Shown piece after piece: positions 22,110-27,962 of a DNA stretch of 64,000 bases (positions are counted from its first letter, which is position 1; each line of letters starts with the position of its first letter). This DNA comes from Eggerthellaceae bacterium (GTDB lineage: Bacteria > Actinomycetota > Coriobacteriia > Coriobacteriales > Eggerthellaceae), in the NCBI GenBank assembly GCA_024691475.1, contig JAILNP010000026.1, forward strand, positions 1,669-65,668. The letters are read 5' to 3'. Under the pieces are notes generated by a model. The model ran no database searches. It saw only the letters and a program-made list of their open reading frames with translations, and had not been told where the DNA came from. The position numbers and the translations under genes were made by a program.

Positions 22110-23387
22110 ATGGTAGACCGTCATCCTATGTGGAAAGACCTCGGAATGGATCTGGAAACGCACGATCAGCTGTGCGCAGTGCTGCCCACTGCGTTTGGCG
22201 ACGTGTATCTTTCCCAGGAAAACCGTCCCGAGGGCATGGCGTTCTGGGACATGGTGGTTGCCGACGTCCACGGCATTCGCCCGGCGGAGCTCATCGAGGA
22301 GCAGAAGAAGGGCCGCAAGGTGTTCGGCACGTTCTGCACGTACGTTCCCGATGAAGTGGTTGTGGCGTGCGATGGCATCGTAACGGGCCTGTGCGGTGGC
22401 AGCCAGTTCTGGGTGCCGGAAGGCGAAAAGCACCTGCCTGCCGACGTGTGCCCGCTCATCAAGGCTAGCCTGGGCGCTCGTTTGGGCAAGACCTGCCCGT
22501 TCTTCCGCATCGTGGACCAGATCGTGGGCGAGACCACGTGCGATGGCAAGAAGAAGATGTACGAGATCATGGCCAAGGACGTTCCCATGCACATCATGGA
22601 GCTTCCCCACATGAAGCGTGATGTCGACGTGGCTCGCTTCGCCCAGGAAATCGCCCTGTTCGCGAAGAACGTCGAAGAGGTTACGGGCAACGAACTCACG
22701 GCCGAGAAGCTCGCTGAGGCCATCGACGTCATCAACAACCGCCGCAAGGCGCTGGCCCGCGTGTACGAAACGCGCAAGGATCCCGACACCATTCCCATTT
22801 CTGGTACCGACGCTCTGCTCATGATGCAGATTGCCTTCTTCGACGACCCCGTTCGCTGTGCCGAGATGGCCAACAAGCTGGCCGACGAGCTGGAACAGCG
22901 CCTGGTCGACAAGGTAAGCGTGTTCCCCGCAGGCACCAAGCGCATCCTGCTCACGGGCACGCCGCTGGCCATTCCCAACTGGAAGCTGCACCACATCATC
23001 GAAACCTCGGGTGCCGCTATCGTGTGCGAGGAAAACTGCACGGGCACCAAGTTTTTCACGAATCTGGTCGACGATTCCGCAACCACGCTGGAAGACCAGT
23101 TCCAGGCTCTGGCGGAGCGCTACATGAAGATCAACTGCGCCTGCTTCACGCCGAACGAGGCGCGCATCCAGGAAGTCATTCAGCTTGCCAAGGATTACCA
23201 CGTCGACGGCGTGATCAACCAGAACCTGAAGTTCTGCACCACGTTCAAGGTGGAGGCTCCTGCTCTGGAAGACGCCCTGGAAGAGGCGGGCATCCCCGTG
23301 CTCAACATCGAAACCGACTACACCGACAACGACGCCGAGCAGCTGCGTACGCGTATTGGCGCGTTCGTGGAGATGCTGGGGGAATAG
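22110..23387 (+). CDS. double-cubane-cluster-type anaerobic reductase (2-hydroxyacyl-CoA dehydratase/HgdB superfamily, DCCP-like)
   Basis: MWKDLGMDLETHDQLCAVLP N-terminus; Cys motifs GTFCTYVP, GLCGG, DVCPLIK, ETTCDGKKK, EENCTG, INCACFTPN, LKFC; IETDY motif. Confidence 0.82.
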   Translation: MVDRHPMWKDLGMDLETHDQLCAVLPTAFGDVYLSQENRPEGMAFWDMVVADVHGIRPAELIEEQKKGRKVFGTFCTYVPDEVVVACDGIVTGLCGGSQFWVPEGEKHLPADVCPLIKASLGARLGKTCPFFRIVDQIVGETTCDGKKKMYEIMAKDVPMHIMELPHMKRDVDVARFAQEIALFAKNVEEVTGNELTAEKLAEAIDVINNRRKALARVYETRKDPDTIPISGTDALLMMQIAFFDDPVRCAEMANKLADELEQRLVDKVSVFPAGTKRILLTGTPLAIPNWKLHHIIETSGAAIVCEENCTGTKFFTNLVDDSATTLEDQFQALAERYMKINCACFTPNEARIQEVIQLAKDYHVDGVINQNLKFCTTFKVEAPALEDALEEAGIPVLNIETDYTDNDAEQLRTRIGAFVEMLGE

Positions 23388-23390
23388 TCA

Positions 23391-23696
23391 GTGAGCAGCC
23401 TGGTCGAGCGCATCGAAGCCGTGCGTCGCGAATGCGGCGGCGTGGTGGACGTCTACGTGATGTTCGATAGCCATACCGACGCCATGGCCATGCACGAAGC
23501 CGCGCGCAGCCAGGGTCTGCATACGCGCATATCTACGGCGCCGCGCGCAATCAAGGCGTCGTGTGGAGTAACCGTGCTCGTATCTGCCAGCGAAGCCGTT
23601 GCGCTAGAATCGTTGGCAGGCGAGCTCGGTTTGCCCTACGAATGTTTCAATCCGCTTCCGCGTCAATTCGACGCGCGACGCGATACGTATTGCTAG
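23391..23696 (+). CDS. DUF3343-like putative Se/S carrier
   Basis: YVMFDSHTDAM...TAPRAIKASCG pattern (FxS..AM..P..I...CG). GTG start 4 nt after the upstream stop. Confidence 0.7.
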   Translation: MSSLVERIEAVRRECGGVVDVYVMFDSHTDAMAMHEAARSQGLHTRISTAPRAIKASCGVTVLVSASEAVALESLAGELGLPYECFNPLPRQFDARRDTYC

Positions 23697-23732
23697 TAGT
23701 TCGCGCAGTGCGCGAACGGAAAGAAGGTTTGC

Positions 23733-25764: not shown

Positions 25765-25771
25765 GAGATCC

Positions 25772-26515
25772 ATGTACGCAATTGGCATTGACATTGGCAG
25801 TACTGCGGCCAAGGCGGCCGTGCTGCAAGATGGCGCGTTGGCCTATACCGTGGTGGAACCCACGGGCTTTTCCAGCGTGGAGGCATCGGAGCGGCTTTCG
25901 GCGCGTCTAGCCGAAGCGGGGTTTCCCACAGACGGCGCGGCTTCGGTGGTATCCACCGGGTATGGCCGCGTTGCCGTGCCGTACGCAAGCAAGAACGTAA
26001 CCGAGATCACCTGCCATGGTAGGGGAGCGTCGTTCCTCTTTGGCGGAAACGGCCTGGTAATCGATGTGGGTGGCCAGGATACGAAGGTCATTTCGCTGGT
26101 GGATGGCAAGGTGCGCAAGTTCCTCATGAACGACAAGTGCGCCGCCGGCACGGGCAAGTTCCTGGAAATCATGGCCGATCGCATGGGCGTCAGCCAGGAG
26201 GAGATGGCCAACCTTGCCCGCGCGGGCCAGCCCACGCCCATTTCCAGCATGTGCACCGTCTTTGCGGAGAGCGAGGTCATCAGCCTCATTGGCAAGGGCG
26301 AACCGCGCGAGAACATCGCAAATGGCGTCATCGAGTCGGTGTGCTCGCGCGTTGCCACGCTGGCGGGCGGCATGGCGGGGCAAGACTGCTATCTTACGGG
26401 CGGCCTGTGCGAAAACGCCTACGTGGTCGAGCGCTTGTCGTCCCATCTGGCGCGTTCGGTTTCCACGTGCCCCGAAGCGCGCTTCGCGGGCGCCATTGGA
26501 GCGGCGCTGTCGTAA
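25772..26515 (+). CDS. ASKHA-type ATPase activator (HgdC/BcrAD/BadFG; DCCP-reductase-like)
   Basis: GIDIGSTAAK, STGYGR, EITCH, DVGGQDTK, MNDKCAAGTGKFLE, SMCTVFAESE. Confidence 0.92.
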   Translation: MYAIGIDIGSTAAKAAVLQDGALAYTVVEPTGFSSVEASERLSARLAEAGFPTDGAASVVSTGYGRVAVPYASKNVTEITCHGRGASFLFGGNGLVIDVGGQDTKVISLVDGKVRKFLMNDKCAAGTGKFLEIMADRMGVSQEEMANLARAGQPTPISSMCTVFAESEVISLIGKGEPRENIANGVIESVCSRVATLAGGMAGQDCYLTGGLCENAYVVERLSSHLARSVSTCPEARFAGAIGAALS

Positions 26516-26603
26516 GCGTGGTGCGGTGCGGGCGTTGCGCGTGGCTATTTGCTCTCGTCTCGAGTACAATCATGCGCGTGTCATTTAACGGGAAGGATCG
26601 TTC

Positions 26604-27962
26604 ATGGTGGAAAAGGATAAGAAGAGCGCGCTCGCACTCGTTCCGTTCCTGACGTTTATCGTCATTTATTTGGGGGCGGGGATTATCCTGCAGGCGCAGG
26701 GCGTCGAGATGGCGTTTTACCAGTTCCCTGCGGTTACCGCCGTGTTCGTGGCGGCAATCGTCGCCTTTATTGCGTTCCATCGCCATGGCATCCACGAGAA
26801 CTTTGCCACGTTTGCGCGTGGCGCAGGGAGCGAAGACATCATGACCATGCTCATGATCTTCCTACTTGCGGGCGCGTTTTCCGAAGTAGCGGGGGCCATG
26901 GGAGGCATCGAATCCACGGTCAACCTGTGCGTTTCGTTCTTGCCTCCGGCGTGGCTCGTCGTGGGCATGTTCGTGATTTCGGCATTCCTCTCCACGGCAA
27001 CGGGCACCTCCATGGGCACGCTCGGCGCACTCGTGCCCATTGCCCTGGGCATCGCGAATGCCGCTGGTCTCGACCTTCCCATCGTGGTTGCCTCGTGCAT
27101 TGGCGGTGCTATGTTCGGCGACAACCTGTCCATGATTTCCGACACCACCATCGCCTCCACGCGCACGCAGGGCGTAGAGCTGAAGGACAAGTTCCGCGCG
27201 AACTTCTTCTGTGCGCTGCCCGCAGCGGTGCTCACCATCGTTCTCATGCTCGTTTTTGCGCCTATCGCCGCTACGGGTGCGGCAGAAGTTGGCAGCTATG
27301 ATTTGCTGAAGGTGCTGCCCTATGTGCTGGTTCTGGTGCTCGCCCTGGTGGGGCTGAACGTGTTTCTGGTGCTCGTTTCGGGCATCGCCGTGGCTGGCAT
27401 CATTGGCATTGCGTATGGCGACCTTACCATTTTGTCCTTCTCCACCGAGATCTGGCTGGGCTTCCAGAACATGATCGAGGTGTTCATCCTCTCCATCTTC
27501 ATTGGCGGCATTGCCGAGCTCACCAAGGAACATGGAGGCCTGAACTGGCTTATCGACAAGATTGGTGGGGCCTTGCGCGGCAAGCGCTCGGCGCAGGTGG
27601 GGCTGTGCGCCCTGGCCGGTCTTACCGATGCCGCAACCGCCAACAACACCATCGCCATTCTGGTGGATGGCGATGTGGCGCGCGATATCAGCCAGAAGTA
27701 TCGTATCGACCCTCGTCGTACCGCATCCATTCTGGACACTTTTACGTGCATCGTGCAGGGGCTCATTCCCTATGGTGCGCAGTTCCTGCTCGTGGTAAGC
27801 CTTACGGGTGGTGCGGTGAACATCCTCGATGTGATTCCCTACAACTTCTACCTGTTCTTGCTCGCCGTCTTCACGTTGCTCTCCATTTTCATTCCCGCGT
27901 ACGAGAAGCTTACGCTGAAGGGCGAATGGGATTGGGAGGCAGGCAAGCCCGCAGGGGAATAG
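26604..27962 (+). CDS. NhaC-family transporter (often amino-acid transporters)
   Basis: TATGTSMGT, GAMFGDNLSMISDTTI, NNTIAI, IPYGAQ; about 11 TM. Confidence 0.85.
   Translation: MVEKDKKSALALVPFLTFIVIYLGAGIILQAQGVEMAFYQFPAVTAVFVAAIVAFIAFHRHGIHENFATFARGAGSEDIMTMLMIFLLAGAFSEVAGAMGGIESTVNLCVSFLPPAWLVVGMFVISAFLSTATGTSMGTLGALVPIALGIANAAGLDLPIVVASCIGGAMFGDNLSMISDTTIASTRTQGVELKDKFRANFFCALPAAVLTIVLMLVFAPIAATGAAEVGSYDLLKVLPYVLVLVLALVGLNVFLVLVSGIAVAGIIGIAYGDLTILSFSTEIWLGFQNMIEVFILSIFIGGIAELTKEHGGLNWLIDKIGGALRGKRSAQVGLCALAGLTDAATANNTIAILVDGDVARDISQKYRIDPRRTASILDTFTCIVQGLIPYGAQFLLVVSLTGGAVNILDVIPYNFYLFLLAVFTLLSIFIPAYEKLTLKGEWDWEAGKPAGE

Follow-up and report, generated by a model that had tools for sequence, protein, structure and literature searches.

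Double-cubane cluster proteins (DCCPs), described in 2018, are nitrogenase-like, ATP-driven reductases of very low potential. We analyzed a locus in which six closely packed, co-oriented genes encode such a protein (class-I DCCP, here DCCP-1), a DUF3343 protein, YedF, a class-V cysteine/selenocysteine (Cys/Sec) lyase, another DUF3343 protein and an archerase-type activase, at positions 22110-26515 of a 64,000-nt stretch of an Eggerthellaceae genome (the window, to whose whole length all coordinates refer unless another contig is named). The source is Denitrobacterium detoxificans, a rumen/gut actinobacterium, or a strain nearly identical to it; locus L005 shares 99% identity with the window locus, and the genome amounts to 2.15 Mb in 193 contigs. 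By sequence, this locus is a real and well-conserved variant of the system formed by DCCP and its reductase (DCCP-R) that is wired into selenium metabolism, and the function proposed for it below, i.e., an ATP-driven chalcogen reductase joined to a selenium relay, is testable.

The DCCP/DCCP-R pair of Carboxydothermus hydrogenoformans (CHY_0487/0488; Jeoung and Dobbek) likewise consists of a full-length class-I protein, with an N-terminal extension and all cluster cysteines, and an ASKHA/archerase partner; the physiological substrate of this DCCP is not known (PMC7317905). The two systems differ in their setting. The C. hydrogenoformans type falls in a sister clade with loci of DCCP and activase only, whereas the clade of DCCP-1 is coupled to a DUF3343 protein with a terminal cysteine and is embedded in selenium genes, and in the window four carrier/lyase genes separate the activase from the DCCP. 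The same set of genes, i.e., SelB, SelA, an HGD-D protein, DUF3343, YedF, a member of the Sec-lyase family, DUF3343, activase and SelD, is found in Slackia heliotrinireducens (Shel_25300-25470; PMC5322559), where a LysR-like gene stands beside selA and a YedE is encoded in the same region; in our genome, YedE lies on another contig (C5) together with a second DCCP. In Escherichia coli K-12, the yjiM-yjiL-ytiA operon likewise joins a DCCP, an activase and a small PF11823 protein, but no selenium genes are adjacent, YtiA is without the C-terminal cysteine tail described below, and YjiM is a short class-II form, like DCCP-2 of contig C5 and not like DCCP-1.

A link between DCCPs and selenium is not new. 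Lin et al. 2015 treated YedE, YedF, LysR_Se and DUF3343 as candidates (PMC5322559, Table 1, Fig. 3), listed the Slackia cassette, and showed, as STRING partners of YedF and DUF3343, a "2-hydroxyglutaryl-CoA dehydratase subunit" and an "activase" without discussing them. Haft 2022 (bioRxiv 10.1101/2022.07.06.499078) built the DCCP model NF040772, counted 955 of 970 DCCPs in genomes with SelD, and proposed either the processing of a selenium compound or a selenium-bridged cluster. Both the correlation and the two hypotheses were thus already in place, on the basis of genome co-occurrence and adjacency to SAO loci; no SAO genes occur in the window, and that text has no mention of YedF, DUF3343 or the lyase. 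What is added here is a SelD profile within one class, including a split by SelA and YqeC, the selenium context of two DCCP clades, an operon of YedE, ABC transporter and DCCP, a carrier subfamily with a terminal cysteine, and a DUF3343-HydE fusion. The locus joins two questions, namely what the natural substrate of DCCPs is and how cells make or deliver reduced selenium for SelD. Its hosts are common gut and rumen anaerobes, and a pathway of this kind would matter to how microbes compete for dietary selenium.

The operon and its selenocysteine locus

Family assignments are based on Pfam and NCBIfam profile scores against curated cut-offs, and a "true DCCP" is one above the NF040772 cut-off (350 bits). 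The locus, and a second selenium operon of the same genome, comprise the following features:

18414-20336, minus strand: selB, selenocysteine-specific elongation factor (TIGR00475, 373 bits, cut-off 242; SelB winged-helix domains present)
20340-21797, minus strand: selA, selenocysteine synthase (TIGR00474, 530 bits, cut-off 268)
21798-22109, no strand: divergent intergenic region of 312 nt, separating selA from the DCCP operon
22110-23387, plus strand: DCCP-1, class-I double-cubane cluster protein by sequence, 425 aa (NF040772, 484 bits, cut-off 350)
23391-23696, plus strand: DUFa, DCCP-adjacent DUF3343 putative carrier, 101 aa (PF11823, 53 bits)
23733-24326, plus strand: YedF (TIGR03527, 211 bits, cut-off 110; Pfam TusA and DsrE)
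24339-25481, plus strand: class-V pyridoxal-phosphate (PLP) Cys/Sec lyase, NifS/SufS-like (TIGR01977, 410 bits, cut-off 377)
25501-25764, plus strand: DUFb, lyase-adjacent DUF3343, 87 aa (PF11823, 73 bits)
25772-26515, plus strand: ASKHA/archerase-type ATP-dependent activase, DCCP-R homologue (TIGR00241, 245 bits, cut-off 125; PF01869 match)
26604-27962, plus strand: NhaC-superfamily permease (PF03553, 90 bits)
27974-29068, minus strand: selD, selenophosphate synthetase, Sec-type (TIGR00476, 365 bits, one TGA inside)
29197-29293, plus strand: tRNA-Sec (selC), anticodon TCA (ARAGORN; Rfam RF01852, 70 bits)
Contig C5, 2654-9333, minus strand (9.5-kb contig, outside the window): second selenium operon

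An earlier note, made from the letters of this DNA alone, had named the genes of this list that lie in the window, described seven of them as a tightly spaced co-oriented operon enclosed by sel genes, and assigned selenium import to the permease. All of the named genes were recovered by Pfam and NCBIfam, the lyase and the permease at a broader family level, and the enclosure is as described: the six-gene operon sits between selB-selA and a Sec-type selD with tRNA-Sec, and the selenocysteine-decoding set in the window (selA, selB, selC, selD) is complete. Successive core genes are 3, 36, 12, 19 and 7 nt apart and 88 nt precede the permease, which is co-oriented but not conserved across related loci. 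The TGA of selD, a gene convergent with that of the permease, lies at 28976-28978 and is translated as U in GGU (start at 29068, alternatively 29092).

DCCP-1 aligns over its full length with the C. hydrogenoformans DCCP (residues 3-423 to 3-421; PDB 6ENO/7YYL; 430 bits). It has conserved cysteines at 76, 95, 114, 129, 144, 310, 343, 345 and 376, among which the seven-cysteine motif, i.e., six cluster ligands and one cysteine above the cluster, reads C76-X18-C95-X18-C114-X29-C144-X165-C310-X32-C343-X32-C376. All of these columns are identical to 7YYL/6ENO in a HMMER alignment, with a spacing 1-2 residues off the motif printed in PMC7317905. Judged by these features, DCCP-1 belongs to class I as defined by Jeoung, Martins and Dobbek (PMC7317905), and an [8Fe-9S] cluster and ATP-dependent reduction of a small molecule are predicted from family membership. 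Class-I DCCPs are long, their N-terminal extension makes the substrate channels narrower, and small substrates are expected for them (PMC7317905). As is usual for a DCCP encoded with its ASKHA (archerase) reductase, a TIGR00241 activase is found in the same operon; no other activase of the genome lies beside a DCCP.

The DUF3343 proteins are putative selenium/sulfur carriers (Pfam PF11823, Se_S_carrier), a family to which both DUFa (53.4 bits) and DUFb (72.8 bits) belong (threshold 25). The family cysteine, Cys58 in DUFa and Cys53 in DUFb, is invariant in alignments of their orthologues (19 for DUFb). DUFa, which starts 3 nt past the DCCP-1 stop codon, additionally carries a C-terminal tail of the form QxxxxRDxYC, in which Cys101 is the final residue of the protein. 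Cys58, Arg97 and Cys101 are all invariant in a 51-sequence DUFa alignment, and DCCP-adjacent DUF3343 proteins form a distinct subfamily with the tail motif Q-I-x-P-x-R-[DN]-x-[YF]-C, and 58 of 61 such sequences end in a cysteine. In an independent Bacillota sample, three of four DCCP-adjacent carriers also ended in the cysteine tail; the tail is not present in DUFb, the DUF3343 protein of contig C5, or YtiA. An AlphaFold (AF2) model of DUFa (pLDDT 92.5) has a small ferredoxin-like beta-alpha-beta domain with Cys58 in a loop, and a tail at residues 91-101 that is unstructured and modelled at low confidence. Searches for relatives of DUF3343 among solved structures, by sequence profile or Foldseek, returned none, only generic ferredoxin-like or ACT-like matches with template modelling (TM) scores ≤0.5.

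As a working analogy only, DsrC with DsrAB/DsrK is a small two-cysteine carrier in which one cysteine ends a flexible arm and a zero-valent chalcogen is held as a trisulfide (PMC10861901). There is no sequence or fold relationship between the two: the only Pfam match of DUFa is PF11823, its fold is ferredoxin-like, and it falls outside the DsrC family. The two cysteines are moreover 10 residues apart on the DsrC arm and 43 apart in DUFa, and the chemistry of DUF3343 is putative.

A PF11823 domain was also found N-terminal to the [FeFe]-hydrogenase maturase HydE (TIGR03956, 318 bits), beside HydG, in three Bacillota genomes:

L196, 1005-2294, minus strand: DUF3343-HydE fusion
L197, 968-2287, minus strand: DUF3343-HydE fusion
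L198, 2399-3688, plus strand: DUF3343-HydE fusion

YedF combines a TusA-like N-terminal domain, with a CPxP cysteine (Cys12, in DACPIP at residues 10-15), and a DsrE-like C-terminal domain with CGTC at 160-163, in agreement with the motifs described in PMC5322559. The lyase has its active-site Cys336 in GAHCAP. Like SclA of Enterococcus faecalis and NifS/CsdB-type selenium delivery, it is a TIGR01977-family class-V PLP lyase encoded with selD, YedF and DUF3343, but it scores 330.5 bits on the SclA model NF040779, below the cut-off of 525, and thus belongs to the broader TIGR01977. By family it would be a Cys/Sec lyase, for which a preference for selenocysteine over cysteine is only putative.

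The permease belongs to the Na_H_antiporter family at the Pfam level only, with 95.8 bits on the NhaC equivalog TIGR00931 against a cut-off of 370. Since an NhaC-family permease recurs in only two of 80 related loci, it is no conserved part of the cassette, and we rejected it as the cassette's importer. The import route that the earlier note had drawn through this gene does not hold: the conserved selenium importer, YedE, is encoded on contig C5 with the second DCCP, and this YedE/ABC locus, rather than the NhaC-like gene, is the import arm that had been looked for. The C5 operon, assigned by tblastn and hidden Markov models (HMMs), comprises, in order and co-oriented, an ArsP-like permease (NF037962, 356 bits), YedE (TIGR04112, 459 bits), a 68-aa TusA-like protein, a third DUF3343 protein, a cystine-like ABC permease, binding protein and ATPase, and DCCP-2, a class-II protein of 389 aa that is 35% identical to DCCP-1 (NF040772, 474 bits). 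No activase lies beside DCCP-2; given that the only DCCP-adjacent activase of the genome is that of the window, the two DCCP loci probably share it.

Conservation of the cassette and co-occurrence with SelD

Next, we evaluated the conservation of the operon across the 80 closest species-level loci in GTDB genomes (≥70% identical), which come from two phyla, i.e., Coriobacteriia plus Lachnospiraceae, Oscillospiraceae and Peptococcaceae. Neighborhoods were counted from a six-frame scan with the window proteins, using six-frame open reading frames (ORFs) and purpose-built HMMs; all-against-all clustering of these ORFs gave noisy results, owing to antisense ORFs in DNA of high GC content. Overall, a DUF3343 gene was detected in 77 loci, where it mostly begins a few bases after the DCCP stop codon; the counts for the other genes were 70 (lyase), 69 (activase), 51 (YedF) and 48 (a second DUF3343). 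Many of these contigs are short. In the subset of 38 loci with complete 10-kb flanks, the corresponding counts were 37 (lyase), 35 (activase) and 28 (YedF), and one or more of selD, selA and selB were detected in 21. Given this recurrence in the 80 nearest loci, the gene arrangement is far beyond chance. Further recurrent neighbors were a family 4 glycosyltransferase (GT4; 28 loci), YedE (14 loci), FocA and Sec-type FdnG/FdnH, and no catabolic genes were conserved in the cassette among the related loci.

A tree of 166 DCCPs has two superclades, one long (class-I-like) and the other short (class-II-like). Within the long superclade, DCCP-1 falls in a well-supported clade of ~90 sequences that nearly always have DUF3343, lyase and YedF in their context; the C. 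hydrogenoformans DCCP lies in a sister group, whose loci consist of DCCP and activase only, and another "solo" group is common in other families of Coriobacteriia. The short superclade holds E. coli YjiM and many solo Bacillota enzymes, together with a Coriobacteriia subclade of ~25 sequences with SelD, YedF, lyase and GT4 adjacent, including the Collinsella-type order DCCP-DCCP-activase-GT-SelD-YedF-DUF3343-lyase. With selenium genes around members of both superclades, this context was acquired in two distant DCCP lineages. In seven Collinsella-like loci (L176-L182), a divergent class-I and a class-II DCCP are either tandem neighbors or separated by a few kb, with activase-GT-SelD-YedF-DUF3343-lyase coming after them, and the SelD of these genomes is Cys-type (no TGA). 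Direct adjacency of DUF3343 is not universal to the DCCP family, a possibility rejected on a Bacillota sample in which it was seen in the cassette clade only; DCCPs were present in 73 of the 201 Bacillota genomes, and a PF11823 gene occurred somewhere in 37 of 38 DCCP genomes.

The earlier note had suggested profiling this subfamily against selD. In total, ~500 genomes were profiled in the course of the analysis, among them 301 Coriobacteriia, of which 154 encode an above-cut-off DCCP and 247 SelD. When only genomes at least 90% complete (here "high quality") were considered, a DCCP was present in 133 of 205 SelD-positive genomes and in none of 43 SelD-negative ones (Fisher 2.5e-17, uncorrected for phylogeny). 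DCCP without SelD was seen in just six of the 301, all of them metagenome-assembled genomes 63-86% complete. The DCCP is thus confined to SelD-positive genomes, as the note's proposal would have it, and since the profile was run within a single class of strict anaerobes, the aerobe/anaerobe confound is removed. Joint absences of DCCP and SelD are spread over several genera, which indicates repeated co-loss, and sub-threshold HGD-D matches are present in SelD-negative Coriobacteriia, so that the restriction is specific to true DCCPs. Among 14 control genomes, NF040772, PF11823 and above-cut-off SelD were all confined to the same two, E. coli and M. jannaschii.

The association extends to genomes that use selenium otherwise than in selenocysteine. 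Twelve high-quality DCCP genomes are without selA, and each of these carries YqeC, the mark of the selenium-dependent molybdenum hydroxylase trait; across the SelA-less SelD genomes tested, YqeC was detected in 26 of 26 and the selenouridine synthase MnmH in 0 of 26. No genome with an orphan SelD, i.e., one in which a DCCP would be the sole client of SelD, was found among the 12. A DCCP that follows SelD in genomes of both the Sec and the YqeC-type cofactor kind fits a step at or above SelD. In one SelA-less Coriobacteriales genome (G048:C91:184543-186362, the L183 region), yqeC (TIGR03172) adjoins a class-II DCCP, which lies after lyase-DUF3343-YedF-activase.

To these patterns may be added what is seen where the DCCP is missing. 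In SelD-positive, DCCP-less Coriobacteriia, a YedF-lyase-DUF3343 triad lies directly beside selD in 6 of 20 loci examined, and most of the others have a short YedF-like gene between selD and selA. A triad that stands beside SelD without any DCCP indicates that the relay module belongs to SelD, which would be the client of the carriers, and that the reductase is an optional accessory. The DCCP would then, together with the activase and a DUF3343 of its own, be a module added to the SelD relay; in the window the modules are interleaved, with DCCP-DUFa, then YedF-lyase-DUFb, then the activase.

A possible chalcogen reductase and its alternatives

Gene identities, packing, cassette conservation, co-occurrence with SelD, the two invariant cysteines of the carrier and the disordered tail of its AF2 model are all observed. 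The explanation that we consider best, although we hold it tentatively and at somewhat less than an even chance, is that the operon encodes a three-part ATP-driven chalcogen reductase (DCCP, activase and dedicated DUF3343) joined to a selenium relay that feeds SelD. Specifically, the class-V lyase would strip selenium from selenocysteine as an enzyme-bound perselenide, or selenium might alternatively enter via the YedE/TusA/ABC system of contig C5, and YedF and the lyase-adjacent DUF3343 would pass it along. DUFa would hold it between loop Cys58 and Cys101, as a perselenide or selenotrisulfide, and its flexible Cys101 arm would offer it to the [8Fe-9S] cluster. ATP hydrolysis by the activase would charge this cluster with low-potential electrons, selenium would be reduced to selenide or to a reduced carrier-selenium species, and SelD would turn selenide into selenophosphate for Sec-tRNA. 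In this scheme we infer from sequence what the substrate is, in which direction it is transferred and that electrons boosted by ATP are needed. The proposal of selenium mobilization made in the earlier note is borne out in its gene set, its enclosure by sel genes and its SelD profile, and fails in its NhaC import step, while the ordered line from relay to reduction keeps the conditional form given here.

The chemistry is plausible. The Se(0)/HSe- couple is very negative. Selenocystine/selenol (diselenide) couples span -0.32 to -0.48 V (PMC10134987), and the protein-bound trisulfide of DsrC withstands dithionite as well as TCEP (tris(2-carboxyethyl)phosphine) and DTT (dithiothreitol), and only an Fe-S enzyme reduces it (PMC10861901). 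Several points nonetheless weigh against this explanation. Thiols normally reduce S-Se bonds, and an ATP-driven reductase may exceed what is needed. About 40% of SelD-positive Coriobacteriia are without a DCCP, as are most SelD genomes overall (Haft: 4.7% vs 38%; bioRxiv 10.1101/2022.07.06.499078), and the step is therefore dispensable. The restriction of solo DCCP clades, including the C. hydrogenoformans type, to SelD genomes is simpler to understand if the enzyme itself needs selenium, and the DUF3343-HydE fusion implies that the fold also serves the assembly of complex Fe-S cofactors from cysteine-derived sulfur.

The last two points lead to a reading in which the carriers serve the reductase, i.e., the lyase, YedF and DUFa supply the bridging chalcogen of the double cubane, either sulfide or selenium in an [8Fe-8S-Se] cluster. 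DCCPs would then depend on selenium or on a special maturation, their real substrates being small molecules of an unrelated kind, and the locus would point to a new selenium-containing or specially matured Fe-S cofactor. We regard this as doubtful, yet as a serious contender. DCCPs are limited to SelD genomes even where their loci consist of DCCP and activase only, a pattern also in Haft 2022 and one most simply explained if the cluster itself used selenium. Genomes with several DCCP paralogues suggest that substrates are diverse, the DCCP is translationally coupled to a DUF3343 subfamily of its own, the fusion to the H-cluster maturase HydE beside HydG points to cofactor assembly, and the E. 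coli trio of DCCP, activase and DUF3343 is without nearby selenium genes. By analogy, a NifS-like lyase in the operon recalls the nif-specific NifS. However, the YedF-lyase-DUF3343 triad is also found next to SelD in genomes that lack a DCCP and is hence not DCCP-specific, none of the 12 SelA-less DCCP genomes has an orphan SelD, all of them carrying YqeC, and the DCCP-2 operon, with its importers YedE and ABC, fits the supply of a substrate better than the maturation of a cofactor. Recombinant DCCP structures were moreover modelled with [8Fe-9S], and no selenium had to be added for the enzyme to be active (PMC7317905).

Co-location might instead reflect co-regulation, redox maintenance or detoxification rather than selenium delivery, with the reductase re-reducing the carriers or a Sec-type SelD (selenenylsulfide or diselenide), detoxifying excess selenium or polysulfide, or acting in a pathway that is merely selenoprotein-dependent. 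Here, SelD is indeed Sec-type, diselenide and selenenylsulfide couples are low-potential (PMC10134987), the C5 operon opens with an ArsP-like efflux permease, one formate dehydrogenase is encoded nearby with Sec-type formate dehydrogenase genes elsewhere in the window, and Haft 2022 offers "pathways with obligatory selenium-dependent steps". We nonetheless consider this unlikely, as DCCPs also stand beside the Cys-type SelD of Collinsella-like genomes, the specific and conserved association with a carrier of two cysteines speaks for a chalcogen as the direct substrate, and conserved catabolic genes are lacking from the cassette. Far more improbable still is that DCCP-1 acts as catalytic subunit in a classical 2-hydroxyacyl-CoA dehydratase or benzoyl-CoA-type reductase that came to lie in the sel locus by chance. 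Pfam does place DCCP-1 in HGD-D (PF06050), and there is a match between the activase and the acyl-CoA dehydratase activase domain, but scores on the equivalogs are far below cut-off (HadC 127 vs 700, BzdN 119 vs 454, BcrC 77 vs 421 bits), DCCP-1 keeps every double-cubane cysteine, and the genome's own HGD-type pair, with a dedicated activase, lies on contig C47. There is also a single HGD-D gene and no alpha/beta pair, and the neighbors are sel and housekeeping genes: the earlier argument against classical dehydration is supported, with neither a CoA-transferase, an acyl-CoA dehydrogenase nor a second HGD-D subunit adjacent. The HMM scores, the lone subunit and the neighbors effectively refute this classical role.

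A broader form of the reductase proposal would take the trio of DCCP, archerase and DUF3343 "arm" carrier as a general three-component chalcogen reductase that makes selenide for SelD in many anaerobes. Here, the C-terminal cysteine of the carrier would thread a perselenide or selenotrisulfide into the [8Fe-9S] site, and ATP-boosted electrons would free selenide. We consider a generalization of this reach rather doubtful; if true, it would supply the missing selenide-generating step upstream of SelD, including for E. coli YjiM/YjiL/YtiA, and the first natural substrate for DCCPs.

Flanking genes and the divergent leader

On contig C47, a two-subunit HGD-type enzyme and its own activase are encoded at 34695-37312, and contig C24 carries a tandem double BcrAD-type ATPase at 30732-32441. 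These genes are candidates for a conventional radical dehydratase/reductase system unrelated to the sel locus.

Within the window, the sel genes are preceded by a Cys-type formate dehydrogenase with a GltD-like partner, a DcuC and a LuxR regulator, and followed by htrA, pyrH, frr, uppS, cdsA and dxr. The formate dehydrogenase, a 903-aa FdhA-type molybdopterin enzyme adjoining selB, overlaps the gene of a GltD/NuoF-like flavoprotein (13787-18323, plus strand, for the pair); it is Cys-type because it has no in-frame stop, and a separate Sec-type formate dehydrogenase operon lies elsewhere in the window. A GT4 glycosyltransferase at 46575-47768 (plus strand) has orthologues (57% identity) that adjoin selA, DCCP or SelD in 28 of the 80 loci, and GT4 is also found in the Collinsella-type order activase-GT-SelD, a recurrence that marks it as a selenium-linked glycosyltransferase.

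The promoters and leader of the operon should lie in the divergent 312-nt region between selA and DCCP-1. A riboswitch or other known RNA was rejected there, as no Rfam family matched; no UGA-containing leader ORF was found in the same 312 nt, and promoter and terminator consensus scans of the leader performed no better than on shuffled sequence. The region holds two copies of the 10-mer GCAGGTGCGT (21862-21871 and 22078-22087), both preceded by TAACGCA, and this repeat may be a candidate operator, e.g., for a LysR_Se-type regulator.

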